64,000 bases of DNA from Escherichia virus TH43. The notes below the pieces were generated by a model. It made no database searches and was not told the origin of the DNA. It saw nothing but the letters and a program-made list of their open reading frames with translations. A program made the position numbers and the translations under genes. Shown here piece by piece: positions 22,885 to 60,560 of this stretch. The number at the start of each line of letters is the position of its first letter. Position 1 is the first letter of the stretch. Location: the sequence record MT446414.1. One strand, written 5' to 3'.

Positions 22885-23853
22885 TTAAGAACTAGCCAAC
22901 CCACCGATAACCCCACCTGCTAACGCACCCCAAGGTCCGAAGGAAGAGCCTGCTGCTGCGCCACTCATAGCACCACCTAAGAAACCACTCCCACCACCTG
23001 AAACCTTATTAGTAGTTGTAGTACCTAAAGCACCGTTGAGAACACCAGCTGCACCGAGTTGGTTGTTAATGTCTTGCCAGCCCCAATTGGCTGCATTCTG
23101 AGCATTTGTATAAGCATTATCCAGACCAGCTTGTTGCTGTTGCTGTTGCTGCAAACCTGCTGCCCACTGATTCTGCATCTGCTGCTGGGATAGTTGACCT
23201 GCTTGGGTTCCTAGATTAGATAAAGAACTACCAATTCCAGAGAGTCCACTTAGAGCAGAAGCTTGAGATTGTCTATTACCTGACAGAATGCTTTGAGCTT
23301 GATTAAGAGCTGAATCATAAGCACTGTTGGTAATATTGGTTGCTGTGTTCTGCATCTGATTAAGAGCATCACCTTGAGCAAAAGATTTAGCCATTCTAGC
23401 ACCTGAACCTTGCTGTCCAGCATATTGCTGAGCCAACTGAGGTAGAGCATTACGAGCCAAATCCTGTTGTGTCTGTTCATTGTTAGCTGTAATAGCAGCC
23501 TGAACAGCTTCATCGTCATAGAGCTGACCAGCCAAGGCACCAATCTGTTCACCAGTAATTTGACCAGAGTTAGATAGGTTGTTATATCCTGAATTGGCTT
23601 GGTCGAGATACCCCAGACCAGATTGAGCAGCATCCATATATTGAGAAGACAGAGCACCAAGTGCTCCTGATTGAGAAAGGTTATTCAGAGCCTCAGTTTG
23701 GTTCTGATTGAAACCTACATTATCTCTATAAACATAATCGCCTGAACTTGTGTTATTCACCTGATTAACCAGTTGGTCAATATAGGATTGAATATATTCA
23801 GGTCTTGTCATTTTGGAAGTAGAAGAGCTACTCCCTCCACCGAATAAAGCCAT
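22885..23853 (-). CDS. Q/N/G/S-rich low-complexity virion protein; paralog of 23863..24912
   Basis: M-x-LFG N-terminus, Q/N-rich body, Gly-rich hydrophobic C-terminus. Confidence 0.5.
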   Translation of the reverse strand: MALFGGGSSSSTSKMTRPEYIQSYIDQLVNQVNNTSSGDYVYRDNVGFNQNQTEALNNLSQSGALGALSSQYMDAAQSGLGYLDQANSGYNNLSNSGQITGEQIGALAGQLYDDEAVQAAITANNEQTQQDLARNALPQLAQQYAGQQGSGARMAKSFAQGDALNQMQNTATNITNSAYDSALNQAQSILSGNRQSQASALSGLSGIGSSLSNLGTQAGQLSQQQMQNQWAAGLQQQQQQQAGLDNAYTNAQNAANWGWQDINNQLGAAGVLNGALGTTTTNKVSGGGSGFLGGAMSGAAAGSSFGPWGALAGGVIGGLASS

Positions 23854-23862
23854 AAACCCTCC

Positions 23863-24912
23863 TTAGTTTGCCCCGAAGGCACCTAGAACACCACCCAAAA
23901 TATTACTCCCAGCTGTAGACAACCAGTTATTCTGATTACTCTGATTGGACAGGTTAGACCCACCGATCATAGGACCAGCCATACCAGATTGACCACCCGA
24001 AGCATTATAAGAGTTCCAAGCATTCTGAGTTTGTTGACTAGGAGTGAAAGCACCCAATCTACCAGCAATACCTAGACCAGTCACTCCAGCACCGAGAATT
24101 TGCTGGGATGTGTTAGGAGAGGCTCCTTTATTAGTAATTGTATAACCAGCCATAGGGCTTACTGAGTTTAATACATTTAATTGGTTGTTGAGTTGATTCC
24201 ATCCGTACTGTTGACTACCAATAGCATTCTGCCAATTAAGGTCAGCTTGAGTCTGATCTTGCTGCTGCTGTAAGTTACCAGCAGTAAGTTGATTCTGGAT
24301 AGCCTGTTGAGCTGCCTGAGTGCCTTGAGAGCCGAGGTTAAGGTTTTGTCCAGCCAACCCTGTTTGTGCGTTCAGAAGGCCTTGCTGGAAGGAACTGTTA
24401 GACCTTAAAGCGTCAACACCTAAGTTCTTACCAGAGATAGTACGAGACAGGTTGGTATTAGCAGAATTCAAAGCAGCACCCTGAGCAGCAGCCCTACGAA
24501 GAGACCCTGAATCAGAACCATTACCAAGAGATACGTTAGATGCAGCCTTTCCTGTTGCCTGAGCCAGTGCAGAACTGTTTAGACCAGAACTGAACTTGTT
24601 AACATCACTAGCACTGATTGAACTATTAGCCAAGTCTTGATATCTCTGAGCCAAAGTGTTCATCTGATCCAGACCTTGTTGTGTCCGAGGAGTATACATA
24701 TTACTCAGTTGATTCAAGGTGGAAGAGTTAGCTAAGTTAGATAGAGCAGCTTGTTGGTTAGGGTTAAGGCCAGCTAGTTGCTGAGAAATAAATCCAGCAT
24801 CATTGCTGTTCATATTCTGAGCATTAGCCACAATCTGTTTTAACAGAGCATCAACCTGAGAGGATGGAGCCACTGTAGTTTTAGTCTTAGAAGCAGACCC
24901 GAATAAAGACAT
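23863..24912 (-). CDS. Q/N/G/S-rich low-complexity virion protein; paralog of 22885..23853
   Basis: same architecture as its neighbour. Confidence 0.5.
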   Translation of the reverse strand: MSLFGSASKTKTTVAPSSQVDALLKQIVANAQNMNSNDAGFISQQLAGLNPNQQAALSNLANSSTLNQLSNMYTPRTQQGLDQMNTLAQRYQDLANSSISASDVNKFSSGLNSSALAQATGKAASNVSLGNGSDSGSLRRAAAQGAALNSANTNLSRTISGKNLGVDALRSNSSFQQGLLNAQTGLAGQNLNLGSQGTQAAQQAIQNQLTAGNLQQQQDQTQADLNWQNAIGSQQYGWNQLNNQLNVLNSVSPMAGYTITNKGASPNTSQQILGAGVTGLGIAGRLGAFTPSQQTQNAWNSYNASGGQSGMAGPMIGGSNLSNQSNQNNWLSTAGSNILGGVLGAFGAN

Positions 24913-24924
24913 ACGTCCTCCTTA

Positions 24925-25719
24925 TTATTTAATAACACCAACACTTGCCAAACGTCTAAGAACGGCTTGTGTCTGTGGGCTGTATTGAGAACCTGCTTGA
25001 GTTGGTGCATGTGCTCTCTGAACTGTTTGAGACTTAGGAGCCTTTCCTGCTAACATCGCAGCAGCAGCTAGTGCAGCATTACCGAAGTTCTGTTGTGGTT
25101 TCTGATCTTCCCCAGCCTCTTCTGCATCGTCAGAATAGAACTCAGCAGGAGAACCTCCTAGAGCGCCTGTCTTAGCAGCAGCAATCTCAGCTTGAGTAGG
25201 AGCATTAGCAGCACCTTCTTTAGTAACCAACTCAGGAGAGAATTGGTTCACTGGCTGTGCTGATTGTAAAGCCCCAACAGGATTAGCCACCTGACCAGCA
25301 GCATCATTAGCTGTATAGAAAGGAAGGAAGTTCTTATTGTTCATAGAATCCAAGGCTTGAGGTGTAAACCCCTTCTTACCAGCGAACATTTGTTTTGCTC
25401 CACCAGTCCCTTCAGAGTATCCCACCATAGCTTTCTTCACATCACCATTAAAAGCTTTCAAATTATCACGAATATATCTAGCACCCATGTCAATGTTTTT
25501 GGCTGGGTCTAAACGATCTTCTAGTTTGTATCCATAGTCTTTAGCCAACCCTTTACTAATTTGCATTAAACCTACTGGCCCTGTACCTGATGCAACAGAA
25601 GGTCTACCACTAGACTCCCTCTGAATGACCGCATGGATAAGAGCAGCAGGAATGCCATACTTCTTAGAAGCTTGCTGGACCATAGGGTCAAGCTCGGACA
25701 CTCCCATGCGTATTGTCAT
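24925..25719 (-). CDS. lytic transglycosylase (SLT domain) virion protein
   Basis: SLT motif IQRESSGRP...GLMQIS...Y. Confidence 0.7.
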   Translation of the reverse strand: MTIRMGVSELDPMVQQASKKYGIPAALIHAVIQRESSGRPSVASGTGPVGLMQISKGLAKDYGYKLEDRLDPAKNIDMGARYIRDNLKAFNGDVKKAMVGYSEGTGGAKQMFAGKKGFTPQALDSMNNKNFLPFYTANDAAGQVANPVGALQSAQPVNQFSPELVTKEGAANAPTQAEIAAAKTGALGGSPAEFYSDDAEEAGEDQKPQQNFGNAALAAAAMLAGKAPKSQTVQRAHAPTQAGSQYSPQTQAVLRRLASVGVIK

Positions 25720-25731
25720 AAATCCTCCTTA

Positions 25732-26763
25732 TTATAGACCCGCAAAAACTTTAGCCGCATTTATTACCGGAATTGATATATTAATGGCAGAGTTAGAACC
25801 TAGGTCATAATTGGTAGACCACTGGAACATATACCTACCATAGCCAGTACCTATAGAAGATCCTGTCATTACATGAGATCTCATTTGCTGATAGTACCAA
25901 CCACTACCACTACCCCGAATAGCACCTACACCAGAGGAGAGTGGTATCATTGGGTATGCCATACCAGTATCACCTCCAGCAGAACCTACAAAATTATCAA
26001 CAGTAAAAGGTGTTCTATTAGTAGAGAACACACACTGAGTTGTTCCGGGAGAATAAATATTTAATCCACCATTGTGCTCAGGAACTCCTGCTCCATTACA
26101 GAATACTGCGACCCTAGCAAATACAGAACCGCCTTCGTTAGAGTTTCCGTTATTATAAGATCTGTTCTGATATACACGGATCACTCTATCTCCAGATGTA
26201 TAAGAAAGGCCAACCCCTCCGTCAGACCAGTTAGCAAAGACTACAGCATTAGGCATATAAAACCCACCAATGTCAGGAATCTGTAAAGCGCCGTTTATAG
26301 TCCCTTGCCAAGCCCAAATACACTGACCAACAACACCAGCATCAGAGATAGAGAAGTAATCAGCTGTATTAGAGAAGGTAATACCATAATTTCTGTCAGC
26401 TCTTGGGTAGATTTGGTAAACGTTAAACCCACAATCAAACAGGGGGTTACTTCCGGGATTCTGGTTTAAGTTAACTCTGAAAGAGGAGTTATTCTCTACA
26501 TAAATGTTATTAACACAATAAACATCAGGAACCAAGTTAGGAGGAACTTCCCACTGCCAGCACAGAGACCCAGTAGGGACGATAATTATCTGACCGCTAC
26601 CATCCCAACCATTAATAGGGAAAGATCTCCCACCCCCGTTAAAGTTGAAACTCCCACTAATAGAGTTCTTAATCTGAGGGAATGTACTCCCACTATCAAT
26701 AAACAAAGGAGCCGGAGAGGCTGGCCCCGGTCCTACAGGTTGACACCATATTCCATATGCCAT
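25732..26763 (-). CDS. tail protein (Gly/Asn-rich, beta-rich)
   Basis: position; composition. Confidence 0.45.
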   Translation of the reverse strand: MAYGIWCQPVGPGPASPAPLFIDSGSTFPQIKNSISGSFNFNGGGRSFPINGWDGSGQIIIVPTGSLCWQWEVPPNLVPDVYCVNNIYVENNSSFRVNLNQNPGSNPLFDCGFNVYQIYPRADRNYGITFSNTADYFSISDAGVVGQCIWAWQGTINGALQIPDIGGFYMPNAVVFANWSDGGVGLSYTSGDRVIRVYQNRSYNNGNSNEGGSVFARVAVFCNGAGVPEHNGGLNIYSPGTTQCVFSTNRTPFTVDNFVGSAGGDTGMAYPMIPLSSGVGAIRGSGSGWYYQQMRSHVMTGSSIGTGYGRYMFQWSTNYDLGSNSAINISIPVINAAKVFAGL

Positions 26764-26764
26764 A

Positions 26765-27787
26765 TTACCAACTCCCTATTCTAATTCTCAAAGCACCACC
26801 ACCGTCATAGAAATCAATCCTGTTACCATTCATCCACAGCTGTGCCCCACCTGTACCACCCATAACAAAATCCCCACCAACTGTAAGTCTCCAGTTAGAA
26901 CCACTCATAGAGCCAGCAGTAATCTTGTTAGCAGTAAGGTTAGCAATCTGTCCATCTTGAATCCACACGTTATCAATCTGAGCAAACTGGATTCGAGCAT
27001 TAGCAATCTGAGCAGTTGTAATGTTGACATTCTTGATATCAGCGAATTCCATTCTAGCTCTACCACCTTCAAAAACAAAAGGAGTATTACCAGAGTTGCC
27101 ATCACCAACAATAAACTTATTAGCCGTTACTTGGAATTGGCTGTTCGTGCCGTTGTTAGTTAGTTTAACACCAGCGTACTGACCATTAACAGAAGAGTTG
27201 ACACCCCATGTAGCTTCGTAACTATCTAGTCTCATGTATTGAGAAAGAGAGTTCTGTACAGTAGTAACCTTACCATCCACTTCGGCAATCTGAGTACCTT
27301 GAGCAGTAAGTTCTGTCTGAACTAAAGCAATCTCTTGTCCTTGTTCATTCACAATACCTTGTACTGTCTGAATCTTTAAATCATTACCTTCAATAGAAGT
27401 TTTGAAACCTGCAACTGTACCATCTAGTTTAGTCGGAGGGTTAGTGCTTCTATCCCAAATATCTTCAGTAGAAAGATTACCCATCTGTGTTTGGATATCA
27501 GCAATAGCTGTTTCAATCTCTGTAGTAATTCGGTTCTCAAGTTCATCAAACTGTAGGTTCATTGCATTAAGAGCTTTAATACGAACATCTATCTCTTCAT
27601 GAATCTCGTCGATTGCTTGGAACATCTGGTTAGTTGCTGTACTGACTTTCTGTAATTCATCATAAACTGCAACGTTGTATTTATCCGTATCCTCTACATT
27701 GTTTAGAAACCCAACGTTGTAGGGAAGTGTGGTGTTGTTTCTTCCAGTATTCTTACGAAAACCTCCAGCACCCATAAGTACCTCCAA
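26765..27787 (-). CDS. tail fibre-like protein
   Basis: N-terminal coiled coil then repetitive beta-rich region. Confidence 0.5.
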   Translation of the reverse strand: MEVLMGAGGFRKNTGRNNTTLPYNVGFLNNVEDTDKYNVAVYDELQKVSTATNQMFQAIDEIHEEIDVRIKALNAMNLQFDELENRITTEIETAIADIQTQMGNLSTEDIWDRSTNPPTKLDGTVAGFKTSIEGNDLKIQTVQGIVNEQGQEIALVQTELTAQGTQIAEVDGKVTTVQNSLSQYMRLDSYEATWGVNSSVNGQYAGVKLTNNGTNSQFQVTANKFIVGDGNSGNTPFVFEGGRARMEFADIKNVNITTAQIANARIQFAQIDNVWIQDGQIANLTANKITAGSMSGSNWRLTVGGDFVMGGTGGAQLWMNGNRIDFYDGGGALRIRIGSW

Positions 27788-38340: not shown

Positions 38341-39459
38341 TTAAGCACCAGATTTAACGGTGTAGGTTTTGAACACTGTAGAACCTGGGTCAGTTCTCAG
38401 GGTTACTTTAGTATCTTCACTAGTGATAGCACCAGAGAGCGTAATTGTTAAAGCATCACCAGAAATGGTAATACTCAATTTGTCTGCATCTGTGCCTTCT
38501 ACATCATATACGATAGTTCCTAGTGGAGCACCTTGAGGAACAGAAGCTATGTTAAAAACTCCTGGTTGGCTTGGGTCTGAGATTGTCAAAGTATCACCAG
38601 CTACTGACCCATCAGACACTGCTGAAACAACTAAACCAGTAAGTTTAGGTATTACGTCTTCTATGGTAGAAGTTGCAGTTACTGAAGTCTGGGTTTTATG
38701 AGTAGCCTTAACAGTTACATTGTCATTCGCTGTATCTGACAAGGTTAACAAGCCAGAGGTAGCATTAACAGAACCGGCAGCAGTAGGGGTTACTACAAAA
38801 TTATAGTCACTAGCAGCTGAGCGTTGAACAGTAAACATATCTGTAAAAGCGACACTGTCTCCACCAGATTTTCCAGTAATAGCAGCTTTAGCCGCGATAG
38901 TTGGAGGCTGAGGGTTGACAACAACGTTAATCACTTTAGTGACAGAAGGTTTAGTAGAAGATTTAACTGTAAGAGTAGTACTACCTGCTGCAACAGCAGT
39001 TACACGACCAGCAGTTGTTACCGTAGCCTTAGTCGGATCTGCAATTTCCCAAGTAACACCTTGAGGTGCACCAGCAGGAGATACAGAAGCAGTCAGATTG
39101 GTAGCATCTGGAACAGTTATGGTAAGAGTATCACCAGTTAGACCACCACCAGTTACAGCAATGGAAGCTGGGTCAGGGATTGGAGCTTTAATTTCCGAGA
39201 TAACGGCAGTACCTGATACATCTTTAAGAGTAGCAGTCACTGTAATATCAGCGGTTTGAGGCGAACCCGGAGCAGTGAACAGTCCAGAAACAGAAATGGC
39301 CCCACCACCGGCTACTGACCAATCGAAGCCTGTAGTAGATGTGGAGCCATCGCTTAGTTCTGCTTCAGCTGTAAACTGTTGGGTAGCCCCGGTCAGCAGA
39401 CTAGCCACTGACGCGGGACTAACAGTTACGCTGTCAACTGTTACGCCCCCGCCTTTCCC
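38341..39459 (-). CDS. Ig-like domain C-terminal extension of capsid, reached by -1 frameshift (minor capsid fusion)
   Basis: ORF in -1 frame overlapping the capsid 3' end; slippery GGGAAAG; BIG2-like repeats. Confidence 0.5.
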   Translation of the reverse strand, partial: GKGGGVTVDSVTVSPASVASLLTGATQQFTAEAELSDGSTSTTGFDWSVAGGGAISVSGLFTAPGSPQTADITVTATLKDVSGTAVISEIKAPIPDPASIAVTGGGLTGDTLTITVPDATNLTASVSPAGAPQGVTWEIADPTKATVTTAGRVTAVAAGSTTLTVKSSTKPSVTKVINVVVNPQPPTIAAKAAITGKSGGDSVAFTDMFTVQRSAASDYNFVVTPTAAGSVNATSGLLTLSDTANDNVTVKATHKTQTSVTATSTIEDVIPKLTGLVVSAVSDGSVAGDTLTISDPSQPGVFNIASVPQGAPLGTIVYDVEGTDADKLSITISGDALTITLSGAITSEDTKVTLRTDPGSTVFKTYTVKSGA

Positions 39460-40499
39460 GCAGCGGTGAACAGTACACCAGAAGCATACGGGTTGCGGTG
39501 ACGCAGACCAACTTCCATTTCGATCATCCACTTCTCGTAAGAACCATCTTTAGCCAGTTCAGTACGCTTCGGAGCACGAAGGACCATCTGAGTCCAGTCA
39601 GAGCTGCGGAAGAAGTAAACTGCATCAGTAGGCATCCAACGGTTAACGATGATTTTATAGCTCTGACCCAGCGGGTCGGTGATGCTGTTAACTTCGTAGA
39701 TGAATTGTTTAGTGTTCTCAAAGATACGCTGACGAGAACCAACAGAGTTTTCCTGCAGCTTAGCAAAAATGCTAGCGTGAGCAGGGTTAATCATGATGAT
39801 ATCAGCTTCAGAACCTGCGGTATACAGCTGAAGAGTCATATCAAAGATATCTGCTTCATCAAAGCCTACGTTAGTGGTAGGGTTAGATGCGTTCTGTGCA
39901 ACTTTAACAGTTACTGCACCGGTATCCGGGTCAGCAGGGCCGTTCTTAGTCTTATCAACAACGCTACCAGACAGACCACCATGAGCACACAGGAACTGGA
40001 AAGCACCAGTCTTACGAGCTGCATGAGTATCATTCAGACCAGCCAGAGCAGGATCAGCTGCTGAGTTAGTCAGATACTGGTCAGCCAGAACGTCGGTACG
40101 AGCCTGACCGGACAGCAAGATTTTCTCGAGATCACGTTTAATCTCTTTACCTTTCTTCTCCAGCTGATACATCAGTTCACGACCACGACCGTAGTTAGCG
40201 GTGGTGTTAGCAGTATCAGAAACACGAACTACTTTACGCAGGATCTGAGTTACGTTAGATTTGATAACAGTCGGTTGCATTTCACCGTCATCAGCGCGAG
40301 AGCCTTCAACGTGTGCGTTGTTAGCATCAACACTTGCCAGTGCATCGGTCTGCCAGCTGAAAATAGTCTGGTTGATAGACTCTTTACCAGTCATAGACAC
40401 AAACGGAGTATCTTGCGGAGAGAGGACAGAAATCCAGTTAGCAAAAGAAAGTTTTTTACCGTTCTGGTCGTAAGATACAAATAAAGTTGGATTTGCCAT
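39441..40499 (-). CDS. major capsid protein
   Basis: follows portal and acidic scaffold; strong RBS; frameshift into Ig extension; terminator downstream. Confidence 0.6.
   Translation of the reverse strand: MANPTLFVSYDQNGKKLSFANWISVLSPQDTPFVSMTGKESINQTIFSWQTDALASVDANNAHVEGSRADDGEMQPTVIKSNVTQILRKVVRVSDTANTTANYGRGRELMYQLEKKGKEIKRDLEKILLSGQARTDVLADQYLTNSAADPALAGLNDTHAARKTGAFQFLCAHGGLSGSVVDKTKNGPADPDTGAVTVKVAQNASNPTTNVGFDEADIFDMTLQLYTAGSEADIIMINPAHASIFAKLQENSVGSRQRIFENTKQFIYEVNSITDPLGQSYKIIVNRWMPTDAVYFFRSSDWTQMVLRAPKRTELAKDGSYEKWMIEMEVGLRHRNPYASGVLFTAAGKAGA
39453..39459 (-). other. slippery heptanucleotide G_GGA_AAG for -1 programmed frameshift
   Basis: X_XXY_YYZ pattern 4 codons before the capsid stop; stem-loop follows. 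Confidence 0.5.
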
Positions 40500-40539: not shown

Positions 40540-41619
40540 TTAATCTACGAGATACTTAAATGCATCTTCGTGACGAATGCGACCCTCTGAAAATGCCTTG
40601 GCAACCTTAGCGTTGTCTGGCGTATTGGAAGTACGAGACTTAGAAGAGTCGGACTTCACAACCTTACGTGGAGAACCCGGACGTTTAATCTTAGCCATTA
40701 CCTGTTGCTTACCTTTATCGAATTGGTATGCTTTGTGCAAAGCTAGGAAAATAGACGGACGATTCTCTTTCAAGACTTCTTCTTCTGTAGCACCGAGATC
40801 AATTGCATATTGCATCAGATTCTGATAAACACTGTCATCCCAATTAGGAATTTCACGTTTCAATACATTAACACATTCGGTACATTTAGCTTGGAAGGCT
40901 TGCTGTTCTTTTGCTGCTGCATCTTGCTTGATCTTAACTTGCGCTTGTTCAAGCTGCTGACGACGAGCAGTGTACTTCTCTAAAAAGCGTTTGTTTTCAA
41001 CATAGGCTTGTGGATCTTCAACTGCTAGCTTGTCCCAATCAAAACCGTTATAATCTTCAATTACTCGGTCTGCTTCTAAGGACGCTAATTCTAATACATC
41101 CGCTAAACCACCTACACGCTCTTCAAAAGCTTCAACATGACGCTGAAGAACAGCTTCCCGTTCAGTCATATCGGAGCCAGTAACATAGCCATTTGATAAC
41201 TCTTCAATAGTCATCTCACGACCATCAGGAAGGGTGATAACAGTTTCATAATCTACGTCGAAAGCATCACCTTCTTCGTATTCACTGTCAGTAGAATCAT
41301 CGTGATCTACATCACTTGGTTCTTCATCTTCAACAACTTCATCAGAGTCGTCGTCTGAATCACCTTCATCGTCTTCTCCTTCCTCTTCTGAATCATCCCA
41401 TCCTTCTTCATCTTCGAACGTGAGTTCATCACCCTTACCGAGAAGGTCGGAATCAAAGTCAAAGTTATCTCCAGTATCTTCTGGAAACTCACTGTCAATG
41501 TCCACTTCTGGTTCTTGTTCAGATTCTAATCGACTTAGGTCTTCTTTAAAAGATCCTTTCAAGTCATCAAGTTGGAGGAATGATTTAAAATCGTTTGGGT
41601 CTAAAAATTCATTTGCCAT
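40540..41619 (-). CDS. scaffolding protein (highly acidic N-terminus, coiled coil)
   Basis: D/E-rich N-terminal region; position between portal and capsid. Confidence 0.55.
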   Translation of the reverse strand: MANEFLDPNDFKSFLQLDDLKGSFKEDLSRLESEQEPEVDIDSEFPEDTGDNFDFDSDLLGKGDELTFEDEEGWDDSEEEGEDDEGDSDDDSDEVVEDEEPSDVDHDDSTDSEYEEGDAFDVDYETVITLPDGREMTIEELSNGYVTGSDMTEREAVLQRHVEAFEERVGGLADVLELASLEADRVIEDYNGFDWDKLAVEDPQAYVENKRFLEKYTARRQQLEQAQVKIKQDAAAKEQQAFQAKCTECVNVLKREIPNWDDSVYQNLMQYAIDLGATEEEVLKENRPSIFLALHKAYQFDKGKQQVMAKIKRPGSPRKVVKSDSSKSRTSNTPDNAKVAKAFSEGRIRHEDAFKYLVD

Positions 41620-56324: not shown

Positions 56325-56589
56325 GTGAGGATGTTCCTCAATTAACTATAATCTCAATGCCATATGGCTCACCGCTAGGGCGAGACTTGTCTCAAACATC
56401 CGGTGATAGACTAAAACCTGTTAATTTTCGAATGGCATTCCGATATGTAGGGGTATGTATCGGTTTGGGATAGAGAACAATCTAGGGGTAGAAAGTTCTC
56501 GACAGTTTGTACAAGCGGAAGCCTTAACGTGTAGGGCTTCCCTTTATATTAACTGGCAATCCTGCCTCCATTAACAAAGAGAGAACGTT

Positions 56590-56730
56590 ATGAAAAAGAC
56601 AACCAAACGTATGAACCGTCCTGAACGTATGGATGCAGTAGCAAATGGTGCTCTGAAGATTGAGTCTGCCATGCTCCGTCTGACAACTAACATCCGTAAA
56701 CGTCAGGGTGATTGGTTCTATGGCGGCTGA
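56590..56730 (+). CDS. small basic protein (46 aa)
   Basis: manual translation; RBS AAAGAGAGAA. Confidence 0.3.
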   Translation: MKKTTKRMNRPERMDAVANGALKIESAMLRLTTNIRKRQGDWFYGG

Positions 56731-56923
56731 GCATGACATTGGTATTCGTGAGATTATTCGTCTTGCGATAATTGACCATCCTAATAGTCGTGATGGTTTG
56801 TTGTTACAGATCTCTAAATGTCTCAATTGCGATCGGGATGTAGCAAAAGAGTTGTTCTATGCATTCCTGTATAATGCAGAAGATCGCTTCTTGAATAACA
56901 AACTGCGTAGTGCTTGCACTTAA
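56720..56923 (+). CDS. hypothetical protein
   Basis: ORF track 56708..56923; internal ATG. Confidence 0.45.
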   Translation: MAAEHDIGIREIIRLAIIDHPNSRDGLLLQISKCLNCDRDVAKELFYAFLYNAEDRFLNNKLRSACT

Positions 56924-56928
56924 ATAAG

Positions 56929-56960
56929 AGGCTGCCCTTCGGGGTGGCCTTTGTTGTTTT
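56929..56960 (+). terminator. rho-independent terminator
   Basis: GGCTGCCC-TTCG-GGGTGGCC hairpin plus T-rich tail. Confidence 0.55.
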
Positions 56961-57003
56961 AATTAAGGGGCAACTCTTACTTAAACTAACAAGAGAGGTT
57001 GGT

Positions 57004-57213
57004 ATGAACATTCGTTTAGTTCGTAAACAAGATGGCAGACAGGTTGTGCTAGGTGAGATTGTTTGTGCTGCACACAACCTACTCCCTGAAAAAGATGAAA
57101 CTATCTGGTTTGATGGAGAACAGCGCCGAGTATTATCGGTTGTTAAATCCTTTGAGCCAAAACGCAACAATGAAAAAGCTCTTACCTGTTGGTTTGAGGT
57201 TGACATTACATAA
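57004..57213 (+). CDS. small hypothetical protein
   Basis: same frame as track ORF 56914..57213; RBS AGAGAGG. Confidence 0.45.
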   Translation: MNIRLVRKQDGRQVVLGEIVCAAHNLLPEKDETIWFDGEQRRVLSVVKSFEPKRNNEKALTCWFEVDIT

Positions 57214-57222
57214 GGGGTTGAT

Positions 57223-57474
57223 GTGTTCAATCGTTTATTTGACCGTAAAGGTCGCACTGACATACTGATACCTTCTATCGGTGTGCCAGCTAAGTTCGGT
57301 GAGATACGTGCTGGTGACTTCTTCATGGAATCAGGTCGTCTTCATCTGAAGATCAACCTCGATCACGCTGTTGAAATCCTCAGTGATGATAAGCCAATCA
57401 TCGGCACTTCGGTGTACAGTGCAAACCATACTGTATTTGTTGTCAATGTTCAGATTGAGATTAAATCACCATGA
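57223..57474 (+). CDS. small protein, PGDxF paralog family (GTG start)
   Basis: FGEIRAGDFFM motif. Confidence 0.45.
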   Translation: MFNRLFDRKGRTDILIPSIGVPAKFGEIRAGDFFMESGRLHLKINLDHAVEILSDDKPIIGTSVYSANHTVFVVNVQIEIKSP

Positions 57475-57728
57475 AGACAAACTTCCGAGCAGCAGTTATT
57501 ACGAAAGTAATAGCAGTTGGCGATGTAATGATGCAGGTTCCTCTGAACACTCGTTACATTGCCATTGACCGAATGGGTTATGTGTGGGCTTGGAAGTGGA
57601 AGCCTACTTATAACGAACTGTTCGACGAATACCAGTGCGCTGGACCTTACATGCCAACCTTAATCGGTGTGTATGAAGATGGTCCTTGTCGTACTCCTCA
57701 GTTAATCGAACTACCGGCGTGTGCTTAA
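57471..57728 (+). CDS. hypothetical protein
   Basis: ORF track. Confidence 0.45.
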   Translation: MKTNFRAAVITKVIAVGDVMMQVPLNTRYIAIDRMGYVWAWKWKPTYNELFDEYQCAGPYMPTLIGVYEDGPCRTPQLIELPACA

Positions 57729-57729
57729 T

Positions 57730-57891
57730 ATGATTAAGTGGCTAAAGCGTGTCTTCCATTGTCATGATTGGAAGATTATTAACACCCGTCCTCTGGTCTA
57801 TACAGATTCAGATGGGAACAATGACAAGGGCACACGTTACGTTATTCAGTGTAAGGTGTGTGGTGATGTTAGTCATCGTGATGTAATCTAA
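57730..57891 (+). CDS. small zinc-ribbon protein, tandem paralog A (53 aa)
   Basis: manual translation MIKWLKRVFHCHDW...CKVCG. Confidence 0.4.
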   Translation: MIKWLKRVFHCHDWKIINTRPLVYTDSDGNNDKGTRYVIQCKVCGDVSHRDVI

Positions 57892-57900
57892 GGAATCATT

Positions 57901-58065
57901 ATGATTAAATGGTTCAAACGTCTATTTCATTTCCATGAGTGGGAAGATCTTTCTACTTATGAACTGACGATCACAAATAAACTTACTGACAGAGAGCGAC
58001 AAGGGTTGCGTATCTACTCTCGCTGTAAAGTGTGTGGTCTGCACAAGAAAACAGACCTGATTTAA
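57901..58065 (+). CDS. small zinc-ribbon protein, tandem paralog B (54 aa)
   Basis: manual translation MIKWFKRLFHFHEW...CKVCG. Confidence 0.4.
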   Translation: MIKWFKRLFHFHEWEDLSTYELTITNKLTDRERQGLRIYSRCKVCGLHKKTDLI

Positions 58066-58073
58066 GGGGTGTT

Positions 58074-58283
58074 ATGTTCTTTCGTAAGAAAAAGCCCGAA
58101 GATTCTGGATGTAAACACGAGTGGGTGATCACTGAAAACCTTCAAATCACTCACGCTAAAGACACTCCAGTCGAGAGAAAAGAGTCTCGTGTATCTCGTA
58201 TCTGTAAACGCTGTTTGAAAATAGAACAGCATAAAGTTCCCGGTCATATCGGTCACGATGTGGCCTTGCGTATCTTCAGTTAA
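58074..58283 (+). CDS. small zinc-ribbon protein, tandem paralog C
   Basis: CKHEW...CKRC; same frame as track ORF 58032..58283. Confidence 0.4.
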   Translation: MFFRKKKPEDSGCKHEWVITENLQITHAKDTPVERKESRVSRICKRCLKIEQHKVPGHIGHDVALRIFS

Positions 58284-58317
58284 ACAAACTCAGCATCCTT
58301 AGCTCAATGGAGGGGTT

Positions 58318-58740
58318 TTGAAGATAGAGTTAGAATACCCCTTCGTTAATGACTGGCGATTGGGCTACTTAAGAACAAGCAGAGACGGTAGGAAGCGTGT
58401 TGATTTGTATAATACCGACACGGAGAGGACAACCATTTCTTACGCAAGATATTTAATGTCTTGTCACATAGGCAGGTACCTAACTGAAGACGAGGAGGTT
58501 GATCATATTGACAGAAATAAAACTAATGATGACATATCTAATCTTCAGATACTTTCCATAGAAAATCACAGAAAGAAGTCAACATTAGAAGCAACTACTG
58601 GAAGAACAATGATTTCAGTTGTTTGCTCTTATTGTGGAAGATCTTTTGAAAAAGAAAAGCGAAATGTTAAATATGCAAATTCTTTTTGTAACAGATCATG
58701 TGCAGGTAAGTATAACGGTTTCAAATCTATCGGGGCGTAG
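58318..58740 (+). CDS. HNH homing-endonuclease-like protein
   Basis: EEVDHIDRNKTNDDISNLQILSIENHRKK HNH motif. Confidence 0.55.
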   Translation: MKIELEYPFVNDWRLGYLRTSRDGRKRVDLYNTDTERTTISYARYLMSCHIGRYLTEDEEVDHIDRNKTNDDISNLQILSIENHRKKSTLEATTGRTMISVVCSYCGRSFEKEKRNVKYANSFCNRSCAGKYNGFKSIGA

Positions 58741-58806
58741 TCTAGTGGAACAGGCAGCGAGCTTCTAACTCGCCTTACGAGGGTTCGAATCCTTCCGTCC
58801 CGACCA
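58731..58806 (+). tRNA. tRNA-Arg (anticodon TCT)
   Basis: hand-folded 76 nt cloverleaf: 7 bp acceptor, D-loop with GG, anticodon loop CTTCTAA, T-loop TTCGAAT, encoded CCA. Confidence 0.8.
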
Positions 58807-58951
58807 ATTTTAAACAAGGGCTAGTATGGGTACGGCACCAGAGTTAGTGTATCCCTGTTGAGGCAAGTGCTTTTATAACAGTGGGAATTGCTTTCTTAGT
58901 GAGCTTCTGGTTCGATTCCAGATAGTCCACCAAATCAAATAGGAGGTGCTT

Positions 58952-59278
58952 ATGAGTTGGGGTGGTGTAATTACCTTAACCTGTATCTTTATCGCCTGTG
59001 TAGCTCTTACAGGCTGCGTACAGCATCGTCCTGATGGATGGTGTGCATTATCGGTAGAAGGTGTCTGTGTTTCCCGTTGGCATAGCGGGGAGAAGATTCC
59101 TAGTGGTGAAATTGATATGCGTTATGCTGGTGCTTCTTGTTCCAATGGCGGTGCTGTTGACGAGAAGGCTTATGCAAAGCGTGATATGGCTACCCAAGGT
59201 GATTGGTCACGTTATGACTTCATCTCCCGTGGTGAGCTGTGTGGTGGCTCTGTGACAACAACAGGTAAGGAGTGGTGA
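58952..59278 (+). CDS. lipoprotein (lipobox LTGC), Cys-rich
   Basis: signal peptide with lipobox ALTGC; RBS AGGAGG 5 nt upstream. Confidence 0.5.
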   Translation: MSWGGVITLTCIFIACVALTGCVQHRPDGWCALSVEGVCVSRWHSGEKIPSGEIDMRYAGASCSNGGAVDEKAYAKRDMATQGDWSRYDFISRGELCGGSVTTTGKEW

Positions 59279-59279
59279 T

Positions 59280-59534
59280 ATGTCCGGTCATTATTCTGAT
59301 ACGAAAGCTCTACTTGAAACAGCGGCTCAAACTTCATGCCAACAGCAAGTAAAAATGCTGTTGGTTGATATCCGTAATCTTCGTTGGCTTATTAAAGAAG
59401 GTCATCTCGGTAACGCTGCCTATTACAACGTTAAAGATATCCTTCGCCGCCAGCACTTTCTTATCCACGGAAACGTGGTAACTCGCAACTATCAATGGAA
59501 CGGTGAATGGTTACAGCAGCGTATGTCCTCCTGA
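59280..59534 (+). CDS. hypothetical protein
   Basis: ORF track. Confidence 0.45.
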   Translation: MSGHYSDTKALLETAAQTSCQQQVKMLLVDIRNLRWLIKEGHLGNAAYYNVKDILRRQHFLIHGNVVTRNYQWNGEWLQQRMSS

Positions 59535-59761
59535 TTTATGTTATTGGTTGGTGGTTGGCAGCCATTGTAGTTAAATGGTGCTTCAAAACCAATACACTCT
59601 ACAACTTCTTCCATTCCTCATGGAGTGGTAAGCCTGATGAATACTCTATTTGGACGGTGATATTCTTCTGGCCTTTTATGCTGATCTTTATCCTCTTCTT
59701 ACCTTTACTTATGTTGATAGGCTGGGTAATGGATAAGGTGACAGTCTTTATTACTAAGTAA
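59507..59761 (+). CDS. small membrane protein (2-3 TM helices)
   Basis: hydrophobic segments. Confidence 0.45.
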   Translation: MVTAAYVLLIYVIGWWLAAIVVKWCFKTNTLYNFFHSSWSGKPDEYSIWTVIFFWPFMLIFILFLPLLMLIGWVMDKVTVFITK

Positions 59762-59780
59762 TATCATCCTTGGAGTTTTT

Positions 59781-60029
59781 ATGTCTTCTAAAAAGAAAGA
59801 ACTGTTCAACAAACGCCTTTCTGATGCCCTTCAGTGGCGTCGTGATGTTGCTAATGGCTGCGTAAAAGCAAGCTATGAAACATTCAGTGGGTTTGATGAA
59901 ACCTATGCAGGGTTCAAAGGAAGCATCTCCTGTGATGATCTCGATAAGATTTGTGAAAAGTCTTATGAGATGGAAGATAATCTTTGTATTGGCTGGAGCA
60001 TGGGGGAGCTTCGTCCCAACACTAAGTAA
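59781..60029 (+). CDS. hypothetical protein
   Basis: ORF track. Confidence 0.45.
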   Translation: MSSKKKELFNKRLSDALQWRRDVANGCVKASYETFSGFDETYAGFKGSISCDDLDKICEKSYEMEDNLCIGWSMGELRPNTK

Positions 60030-60305
60030 TATCGTGAAGGATTCTTACGAGAGTCCTTTGAGATAGGACTTCAGATCTCCTATCAACTAACCGCTCAATG
60101 TTGAGCATTTTAATCACATAAGCCCCTCATGGGCTGGGTTTAATGCCGGTAAGCGTTTTATGCTATCCACTACAGCATCGGATTGTTAGGTCTTACATGC
60201 AACATTAATTAATAGGATATGGGAGGATTCGTCCCCTCCCCCTATTTATGAAAGCATTCTTCCGAGAGTTCTCTCATAAATTGGTCCATAACTAAAGGTG
60301 GTAAA

Positions 60306-60560
60306 ATGAAAGTTAACATGCCAGCAGGTAAAAATTCAATACCCCTCAGTGCTTTGCGACTTGGGGATTGCTTCATGTACCCTAACAGTGAAGATGGTGA
60401 TTTGTACATCTTACTGTCTACCGAGTTCTCAACTCGCTTGTGCATTAAGGGTGCGGACGAGCACAGACTTGTAGCCTGTCTTAACACAGGCCGAGCGACA
60501 GCGCCTCGTAAAGATGTTGCTGTTATTCCTATTAAAGCTGAAGCAATTATTAAGGAATAA
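60306..60560 (+). CDS. small protein, PGDxF paralog family
   Basis: LSALRLGDCFMY motif. Confidence 0.5.
   Translation: MKVNMPAGKNSIPLSALRLGDCFMYPNSEDGDLYILLSTEFSTRLCIKGADEHRLVACLNTGRATAPRKDVAVIPIKAEAIIKE

Follow-up and report, generated by a model that had tools for sequence, protein, structure and literature searches.

A probable mobile cassette of an HNH endonuclease gene and a tRNA-Arg(UCU) within a resident tRNA gene of Escherichia virus TH43

The stretch analysed here, referred to as the window, comprises 64,000 nucleotides (nt) of DNA from Escherichia virus TH43 (sequence record MT446414.1). It contains, from 5′ to 3′, a short remnant of a tRNA gene, a gene for an HNH endonuclease and a complete tRNA-Arg with the anticodon UCU (Table 1). 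The remnant, termed the stub, corresponds to the 5′ end of a tRNA-Arg(UCU) that is intact in related phages and is designated tRNA-A, while the complete tRNA of the window is designated tRNA-B. The open reading frame (ORF) of the nuclease runs directly into tRNA-B. Comparison with related phages points to a cassette, consisting of the nuclease gene and tRNA-B, that has taken the place of most of the resident tRNA-A gene.

An initial sequence-only reading of this region had described a well-formed 76-nt tRNA with the anticodon UCU, and both ARAGORN and Rfam call it as canonical. ARAGORN detects it as the single tRNA of the window (tRNA-Arg, anticodon tct). The Rfam model RF00005 matches 58731..58803 over its full length with 52.9 bits (gathering score 29; E = 6.3e-10), and no Rfam family besides tRNA-B is found in 57500..60000 at E ≤ 1. 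The identity elements of E. coli arginyl-tRNA synthetase (ArgRS) are A20, C35, U36 and a purine at position 73. tRNA-B carries these elements, with the D loop AGUGGAAC containing A20, the anticodon UCU, the discriminator A and a 3′ CCA, and is predicted from its sequence to be charged by ArgRS. The discriminator of the O18-011 allele of tRNA-B is G. Compared to the O18-011 and YF01 allele, tRNA-B differs at 5 of 76 positions, all of them in loops or the discriminator, with every stem unchanged, whereas the adjoining ORF shares only ~75% identity with the same alleles. This stem-perfect divergence suggests that the stems of tRNA-B are kept under selection and that its function is retained.

The nuclease ORF ends in ...AAA TCT AT[C GGG GCG TAG], with the stop codon formed by U8-A9-G10 of the tRNA. 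The 10-nt overlap between ORF end and tRNA, including the TAG stop, is thus as the sequence-only reading had given it, with one correction: the overlap does not hold the last three codons, but only the final nucleotide of an Ile codon, followed by the complete Gly and Ala codons and the stop. On the upstream side, the GGAGG of the putative ribosome-binding site (RBS) ends 4 nt ahead of the TTG start codon at 58318.

The product of the ORF matches Pfam HNH_3 with 27.5 bits, above the cut-off of 24.8, and PHROG 14913, annotated as 'HNH endonuclease', with E = 4.3e-55, in agreement with the identity first assigned to it. It aligns with homologues in other phages over residues 1–133, which is about its full length. 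Residues D62, H63, N70, N75, C103, C106, C124 and C128 are invariant in these homologues, and H84 is kept in all except PVP-SE1, which has Asn at this position. The C-terminal four-cysteine (Cys4) module shows weak matches to zinc fingers of the FCS type (Pfam zf-FCS, E = 0.072; PDB 2l8e, E = 0.7). A sequence search of the PDB with the nuclease gave non-significant matches only, namely 2l8e and the homing endonuclease I-HmuI (E = 0.38). A Pfam scan of the ORF to E = 0.1 returned HNH families and weak zinc fingers, and no GIY-YIG domain was found. The dN/dS ratio of the nuclease against diverged alleles is 0.08–0.16, with synonymous sites saturated between those alleles; as judged by these substitution ratios, the nuclease is under purifying selection.

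The region of the cassette matches 64 phage records, all of them Escherichia or Shigella podophages of the Gordonclarkvirinae (Kuravirus, Suseptimavirus and relatives), and by these matches the window belongs to a coliphage of this subfamily. Over a 24-kb structural block, the nearest phages are Bas88 (96.5% identity, 90% coverage), TH42 (93.7%) and ECBP2 (90.2%). An intact resident tRNA-A (GCACCCTTAGCTCAATGGACAGAGCAGCGACCTTCTAAGTCG...GGGTGCACCA) is present in 27 records in all, including Bas88, SU7, ECBP2 and MLP3. It begins 9 nt past the stop codon of a conserved 210-bp gene, which lies at 58074..58283 in the window, and these phages have no nuclease gene at this site. Of 5,426 complete E. 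coli genomes, 5,424 contain a host tRNA-Arg gene with 84–86% identity to tRNA-A. tRNA-B, which shares 65–67% identity with tRNA-A, has zero matches in the 5,426 genomes. Its nearest match outside the subfamily is the tRNA-Arg(UCU) of PVP-SE1-like myophages (82% identity), and both have an unusual C1-G72 start. Comparison of the relatives shows that the ancestral state of the locus in Gordonclarkvirinae, as far as aligned genomes can tell, is a single tRNA-Arg(UCU) resembling host argU, directly after the conserved small gene.

In the window, the stub stands 9 nt past the stop codon of the conserved upstream gene, at the same spacing as the intact tRNA-A of the relatives. Homology determined by blastn breaks at 58308 and 58941 with Bas88, at 58311 and 58817 with MLP3, and at 58311 on the left side with SU7. 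The 3′ two-thirds of tRNA-A were not found anywhere in the 64-kb window at up to 3 mismatches. Since the nearest relatives have an intact tRNA-A and no nuclease, and the window keeps a 19-nt stub, the comparison shows replacement at the level of sequence: the cassette of nuclease and tRNA-B took the place of nt 20–76 of the resident tRNA-A gene. On this alignment, the nuclease did not land beside a pre-existing tRNA; nuclease and tRNA-B form one unit. Both this design and the 10-nt overlap recur in the diverged carriers O18-011 and YF01 (74% amino-acid identity), where the stub is longer, at 27–30 nt depending on the parent allele used for comparison. A split or intron-containing tRNA-A was ruled out, as 57500..60000 contains no group I intron or other Rfam family and the window contains no 3′ part.

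Table 1 Features of the cassette region in the 64,000-nt window.
Feature	Coordinates	Strand	Evidence
5′ stub (nt 1–19) of resident tRNA-A, GCATCCTTAGCTCAATGGA	58293..58311	+	18/19 nt identical to the 5′ end of intact tRNA-Arg in SU7, MLP3, ECBP2
Likely ribosome-binding site GGAGGGG of the HNH ORF, partly D loop of the stub	58309..58315	+	Inferred by sequence reading
Minimal cassette (RBS, HNH gene, tRNA-B)	58312..58816		blastn breaks against HNH-less MLP3, which has 62 bp (rest of tRNA-A) there
HNH (His-Me finger) endonuclease gene, 140 aa, TTG start, C-terminal four-cysteine module	58318..58740	+	Pfam HNH_3; PHROG 14913
10-nt overlap, HNH ORF end (..C GGG GCG TAG) with tRNA-B nt 1–10	58731..58740	+	Sequence reading; also in Bas91, O18-011, YF01
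tRNA-Arg(UCU) 'tRNA-B', replacement tRNA of the cassette, CCA encoded	58731..58806	+	ARAGORN; Rfam
~1.2-kb tract 95–100% identical to Bas91 (outside ~70–85%), centred on the cassette	57769..58945		MAFFT block identity; blastn

The cassette is missing from Bas88, TH42, ECBP2, SU7 and MLP3. It is present in Bas91, CHD5UKE1, KM01, YW01, O18-011 and YF01, and a variant occurs in 1-6af, 1-6bf, FH3 and Bas93. The nucleases of Bas91, CHD5UKE1, KM01 and YW01 share 96–99% amino-acid identity with that of the window, yet these phages lie outside the best 45 matches to the structural block. From these comparisons, the nuclease is a sporadic insertion at one conserved site, with a distribution that disagrees with genome relatedness. 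The suggestion that the HNH gene is a mobile insertion has therefore gained ground: the gene is dispensable and patchy, missing from the close relatives Bas88, TH42 and ECBP2 and present in more distant phages. Identity to Bas91, determined per MAFFT block of 100 columns in the left flank and 50 columns in the right flank, delimits a highly similar tract around the cassette (Table 1). This tract looks like the product of co-conversion around a homing nuclease, and plain mosaic exchange could also give it. In HC-25922 and TH42, a 48-nt 3′ fragment of tRNA-B is fused at GGAGGGTT to other sequence, and no nuclease is present; on sequence grounds this fragment is the scar of a lost cassette. In total, at least four unrelated tRNA-Arg(UCU) alleles (A, B, C and D; 48–67% identical) occupy the same spot in the subfamily.

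Several of these alleles show features of their own. A third, tRNA-Arg(UCU)-like allele is found in 1-6af (locus L010, 1641..1719), Bas93 (locus L011, 1641..1719) and HC-25922 (locus L007, 1108..1186), and follows the variant HNH gene in 1-6af and Bas93. Its acceptor stem, anticodon arm (loop CTTCTAA) and T arm are normal, but it lacks a D arm, carries a 20-nt insertion in the variable region and ends in GCTA, not CCA. ARAGORN misses it, and the Rfam tRNA model scores 36.4 and 29.7 bits (gathering score 29). One compensatory change (T-A to C-G) supports a helix of nt 10–13 with the inserted segment. A fourth allele, in NJ01 (locus L017, 1330..1404), is an AT-rich tRNA-Arg(UCU), 48–65% identical to the others, that follows an extra 309-bp gene. 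The HNH gene of Bas93 (L011, 1201..1626) is a chimera, with an N-terminal half similar to the O18-011 allele (L004) and a C-terminal half similar to the 1-6af allele (L010). The N-terminal half of the nuclease tracks the type of stub and the C-terminal half tracks the type of downstream tRNA, so recombination occurs within the nuclease gene as well.

The same design is found in phages outside the subfamily. In PVP-SE1-like phages, an HNH homologue with 43% identity lies within a tRNA cluster. In the HNH-less phage 4MG, tRNA-Arg is directly preceded by an intact tRNA-Leu(UAA). PVP-SE1 retains only the first ~29 nt of that tRNA-Leu(UAA) (27/29 identical to 4MG), with the HNH ATG immediately after; the 3′ end of its HNH ORF overlaps a different tRNA-Leu(UAA) by 38 nt, and the flanks are identical in both phages. 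We regard this alignment of PVP-SE1 with 4MG as decisive for the arrangement of stub, HNH gene and replacement.

A survey of IMG/VR yielded 80 loci encoding relatives of the nuclease (33–54% identity), dereplicated to 66 clusters. tRNAs lie within 1.5 kb in 70 of the 80 loci, the nearest ones all on the strand of the nuclease. The ORF overlaps the 5′ end of a downstream tRNA in 19 of the 66 clusters, and in 11 more it stops 0–15 nt before one. A same-strand tRNA thus starts between -81 and +15 nt of the stop codon in 30 of 66 clusters, compared to 8% expected at the local tRNA density (p = 1e-15). As far as gene positions can tell, an ORF that abuts or enters a tRNA is a non-random hallmark of the nuclease family. 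Leu(UAA), Ile(UAU), Met(CAU) and Thr(UGU) predominate among the abutted tRNAs. An overlap of exactly 10 nt was rejected as a selected length: it occurs in 8 of the 19 overlapping clusters, no more often than the one in three that the reading frame predicts (p = 0.28). tRNA positions 8–10 are U-purine-purine and give TAG, TGA or TAA in 12/12 loci with a 10-nt overlap. These nucleotides serve as a built-in stop, because U-purine-purine reads as a stop codon in those loci. Likewise rejected was the notion that all members of the family are tRNA-associated, as no tRNA lies near those of Acinetobacter B9, Pseudomonas Ty and Vibrio 1.084.O.

Stubs are also a recurrent feature of these loci. Using blastn, 5′ tRNA stubs were detected in 8 of 69 regions upstream of the nuclease versus 1 of 145 control regions (p = 6e-4). 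With a hidden Markov model (HMM) of tRNA 5′ ends applied to tRNA-masked loci, 14 of 35 matches end within 80 nt of the nuclease start, a zone that makes up 2.6% of the sequence (p = 9e-14). The stubs end just past the D stem (...TAGAGCAG|, ...GGTAGACAC| and similar), near nt 26–30, and they do so in Arg, Leu and Thr genes of unrelated phages. In the four resolved cases, namely the window (Arg UCU), PVP-SE1 (Leu UAA) and the loci L030 (Thr) and L096 (Leu UAA), the downstream tRNA has the anticodon or isotype of the stub. The stub of L096 differs from the downstream tRNA mainly at nt 20–23, adjoining the break point.

Fragments of the opposite tRNA end were observed in Pectobacterium phage CBB (locus L014, 1906..2090), where two unannotated pieces resembling tRNA 3′ ends directly follow the stop codon of the HNH homologue. 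They consist of T arm and acceptor strand (...GTACAGGTTCGATTCCTGTTCATTCAC and ...AATGGGTTCGAACCCCATTTGCGGCTCC) and exemplify the accumulation of broken tRNA genes around the nuclease family.

The codon read by tRNA-B is in demand in this phage. In a crude gene set of the window, AGA accounts for 10.8 per 1000 codons, or 20.9% of Arg codons, compared to 1.2–1.5 per 1000, or 2.3–2.8% of Arg codons, in 50 kb of E. coli K-12 (odds ratio 9, Fisher p = 1e-31). These values agree with the earlier statement that the tRNA reads a codon which is rare in E. coli, and neither outcome named there as refuting, a rejected fold or AGA usage not elevated in phage genes, was obtained. A look at the late genes, proposed at the same time, gave no special enrichment in the most highly expressed of them. 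The AGA excess is spread across early and late genes, and two large genes of the structural block, at 39441..40499 and 40540..41619 (both on the minus strand), have zero AGA or AGG codons and 16 CGN codons each. Five genes at 22885..27775 (-), corresponding to 'tail fiber' annotations of relatives, together have 26 AGA versus 14 CGN codons. Since AGA-free genes and an AGA-rich block both lie there, codon choice within the late region is strongly heterogeneous, and with two large structural genes lacking AGA, a tRNA that serves late genes in particular is unsupported. The most AGA-rich gene is that of the nuclease itself, with 8 AGA and 3 AGG among 14 Arg codons. The comparison with the host shows that tRNA-B keeps AGA decoding available in a phage that uses AGA ~9 times more than E. 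coli does.

Taken together, the region is probably a mobile cassette in which a free-standing HNH homing-endonuclease gene is fused to its own tRNA-Arg(UCU), an interpretation drawn from comparative sequence analysis. We postulate that the nuclease would cut or nick nuclease-free tRNA alleles near the junction of D arm and anticodon stem, at nt 26–30, the position at which the stubs end. Repair would then copy the nuclease gene and the linked tRNA from a co-infecting phage. Stub and upstream gene would serve as the left homology arm, and either the tRNA, as portable homology, or the downstream DNA would serve as the right arm. With a non-homologous left flank, the broken end may be joined non-homologously, leaving a stub that marks the cut. 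tRNA-B itself would escape cutting by differences near the site.

Nuclease and tRNA-B would be made as one transcript. In a scan of 56500..60500, the interval from the upstream gene to the HNH start was free of promoter-like sites, and terminator-like sites were absent up to the end of the tRNA. Promoter-like sites in the scanned region were fewer than in shuffled sequences, and terminator-like sites numbered 6 versus 2.9 (sd 1.8), not clearly above. Cleavage by RNase P at 58730/58731 would free the tRNA and deprive the nuclease message of its last codons and stop. This loss of the message end may keep expression of the nuclease low, as proposed for T4 segB. The expectation of the sequence-only reading that the 5′ end of the tRNA is processed out of the nuclease message finds a parallel here, as the same has been proposed for T4 segB and tRNA-Arg (PMC2330249).

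Several points weigh against this interpretation. Cleavage, homing and expression are predictions for this protein and for its close relatives alike, and the Bas91 tract could be the result of ordinary mosaic recombination in a variable early region. Around the break point, tRNA-A and tRNA-B share 17 of 22 nt, so the basis of an immunity of tRNA-B is not evident. The family is not restricted to tRNA genes, given its members in B9, Ty and 1.084.O, and, with its 10-nt length not enriched beyond the reading-frame expectation, the overlap may simply reflect tight packing and not a selected regulatory device. The RefSeq record of T4 annotates segB and tRNA-Arg 5 nt apart, not overlapping. Finally, the exact junction sequence of the window has no match in IMG/VR.

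The locus can also be described as a recombination hotspot with a passenger nuclease, which we regard as unlikely. Stretches shared between tRNAs (D arm, T arm) would promote homeologous or illegitimate exchange, and the HNH gene would be carried along or be active elsewhere. The multiplicity of unrelated tRNA-Arg(UCU) alleles at one spot, at least four and some without HNH gene (NJ01, HC-25922), is consistent with a hotspot, as are the junction of the HC-25922 scar at the shared motif GGAGGGTT, the chimeric HNH gene of Bas93 and several further indels within 2 kb. It leaves unexplained, however, why the stubs end at the same tRNA position (nt 26–30) for Arg, Leu and Thr in unrelated phages, why they stand immediately upstream of one particular nuclease family and why the nuclease is under purifying selection. 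An adaptive swap of tRNAs as the main driver, with the nuclease as the vehicle, seems to us quite unlikely. Here, the non-host-like tRNA-B would benefit the phage by evading a nuclease that cleaves argU-like tRNA or by better decoding of AGA and AGG. The resemblance of tRNA-A to host argU (84–86%) is not shared by alleles B, C and D, and replacement has recurred with the anticodon strictly kept, which suggests that the tRNA body is under selection. Neutralisation of tRNA-cleaving defences by phage tRNAs is known (PMC11464382, PMC11555353, PMC10264068, PMC13096335), and Arg is among the tRNA types common to cleavage by purified P2-OLD and the inactivation suggested earlier for P2-lambda interference (PMC12445682). 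However, no defence specific to tRNA-Arg(UCU) was identified, and the argU-like allele serves most relatives well, the closest ones among them. Alleles A, B and C have the same anticodon loop, CUUCUAA, so a swap among them would give no escape from nucleases that recognise this loop.

A role of the HNH protein in RNA or tRNA biology, such as processing or binding the adjacent tRNA via its cysteine-rich tail, in place of DNA homing, is highly improbable. The tight physical linkage of the nuclease family to tRNAs and the weak zinc-finger matches of the Cys4 module would fit such a role. The catalytic motif, in contrast, is that of the DNA-cutting HNH_3 type, and the only other PDB match, a weak one, is to a homing nickase. 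Furthermore, the gene is dispensable, the closest relatives process their tRNA without the nuclease, and family members also occur away from tRNAs. Mobility of a nuclease linked to its tRNA thus remains our preferred interpretation of the locus.

Additional elements were observed next to the cassette. Directly 3′ of tRNA-B, a 115-nt element (58818..58932, +) has tRNA-like ends: its 5′ GGGCTAG pairs with a 3′ TAGTCC, and it includes a T arm TCTGGTTCGATTCCAGA and a terminal ACCA. It shows 4 variable positions among six phages of at least three genera, while both flanks diverge at once. The element is present in 29 phage records, where it is never annotated, and also stands 3′ of intact tRNA-A in HNH-less phages. 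As a candidate for the missing 3′ half of tRNA-A or for a second tRNA it was rejected, since its acceptor strand and the stub do not pair, and the same piece follows an intact tRNA-A where no HNH gene is present. ARAGORN calls it a tRNA only when its scoring is lowered to 70% and a 22-nt intron is forced; neither ARAGORN nor Rfam gives a standard tRNA call, and the folding z-score is -1.5. By position and size, the element recalls the stable RNAs rnaD and rnaC of T4, which follow tRNA-Arg, and no sequence relationship to rnaC or rnaD was found. It is probably a functional structured RNA. In ECBP2 (locus L005, 1497..1605), a different spacer of ~110 nt separates tRNA-A from the next gene. It has a long terminal pairing (CCCTAAGATGC...GCATCTTGGGG), ends in CTACCA and may be a tRNA-like or structured RNA in place of the 115-nt element.

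Upstream of the stub, three tandem small ORFs on the plus strand (57721..57891, 57901..58065 and 58074..58283; 56, 54 and 69 aa) resemble paralogues. All have an N-terminal (C/H)xH(D/E)W motif and a C-terminal CK(V/R)C motif in common, and a zinc ribbon is possible. Their number varies among relatives, and the last one forms the left flank of the cassette. Further downstream, a 255-bp segment (59766..60020), encoding an 82-aa protein (ORF 59781..60029, +), is missing from Bas88, SU7, MLP3, ECBP2 and HC-25922. The flanks of this segment overlap by ~13 nt in Bas88 and by 12 nt in SU7 and ECBP2, which suggests a short direct repeat at the junction.

Why and how phages carry and acquire tRNA genes is debated, with codon supply on one side and escape from tRNA-cleaving defences on the other. 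As the same design recurs in many other phages, mobile nucleases probably shape phage tRNA content and help decide which tRNA genes phages carry. The locus and the family pattern suggest a coupling tighter than that of T4 SegB, in which a nuclease fused to one tRNA enters a gene of the same anticodon and swaps the allele. Such a coupling would explain the at least four unrelated tRNA-Arg(UCU) bodies at one site in one small subfamily, the tRNA fragments that litter phage tRNA clusters, and a podophage tRNA-Arg allele that is 82% identical to that of large myophages. For annotators, ORFs that run into tRNAs and 5′ tRNA stubs are real features, not errors.

A more far-reaching proposal, which we put forward tentatively as a possibility, is that PHROG 14913 is a dedicated 'cut-and-replace' drive. 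It would cut the resident tRNA at the junction of D arm and anticodon stem and install itself together with a resistant tRNA of the same anticodon as portable homology. If true, the use of a tRNA as portable homology would let the nuclease cross between unrelated phage families. Phage tRNA alleles would then be set largely by a selfish gene drive and not by codon supply, among them tRNA bodies unlike those of the host, which could evade tRNA-cleaving defences, and odd forms like the tRNA-Arg(UCU)-like element without D arm in 1-6af and HC-25922.

Parts of this arrangement have been noted before. In GenBank records of relatives, the two genes already carry the labels 'homing endonuclease' and 'tRNA-Arg', and homing-endonuclease insertions in the DNA-replication locus of Gordonclarkvirinae are described in the BASEL paper (PMC11990801). 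On the arrangement in Kuravirus or Gordonclarkvirinae, or on HNH genes inside tRNA genes, the literature searched consists of genome notes and the SegB work only. No description of the stub, the replacement or the family-wide pattern was found in this literature, which leaves out most subscription journals.

The closest known system is SegB of phage T4, a free-standing GIY-YIG homing endonuclease encoded in a tRNA cluster, which recognises tRNA-gene sequence and, in crosses, causes itself and the tRNA genes next to it to be inherited preferentially (PMC2330249). tRNA maturation has been proposed to damage the segB mRNA (PMC2330249), and homologues of SegB are statistically associated with tRNAs (PMC13096335). 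Both systems have a free-standing nuclease gene directly upstream of a tRNA-Arg on the same strand. The nuclease of the window is of the HNH_3 type, not GIY-YIG, so the cassette would work like SegB without being a member of its family. Furthermore, SegB sits between intact tRNA genes and recognises a T-arm motif, whereas the cassette of the window lies inside a tRNA gene. It leaves a 5′ stub that ends in the region of D arm and anticodon stem, and it brings a replacement tRNA of the same anticodon, both unlike SegB.

HNH-type site-specific endonucleases among phage tRNA genes were reported in work from 2004, as cited in PMC2330249. As for the nuclease of the window, processing of the transcript was suggested there as a control of expression, and the citing text describes no stub-plus-replacement arrangement for the enzymes of 2004. 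T5-like phages are absent from the 60 of 101 records listed in a tblastn search with the nuclease (E ≤ 1e-3) and from its organism breakdown. HNH enzymes of the T5 type are at best distant relatives, because no T5-like phage is among the matches listed.

With I-HmuI (PDB 1U3E), a nicking homing endonuclease of the HNH_3 type, the nuclease shares an HNH_3-type catalytic core at a similarity that is non-significant. The gene of I-HmuI lies in a group I intron within a DNA polymerase gene, and the enzyme has other DNA-binding domains, whereas the protein of the window is free-standing with a C-terminal Cys4 module. Group I introns with homing endonucleases in bacterial tRNA genes (PMC3984707; PMC13011429) likewise combine a mobile nuclease insertion with a tRNA function that is kept. 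In contrast to these introns, which are inserted in the anticodon loop and preserve function by splicing, the window has no ribozyme and no 3′ exon, and it is a second, complete tRNA gene that makes up for the lost function. Integrative elements enter tRNA genes via integrases, and a copy of the 3′ end that they carry restores the gene. In common with the cassette, they use a tRNA gene as a landing site and offset its disruption by carried tRNA sequence. They differ in relying on an integrase and in duplicating the 3′ part, whereas in the window a nuclease and recombinational repair would act, a whole tRNA is supplied and a 5′ remnant stays behind.

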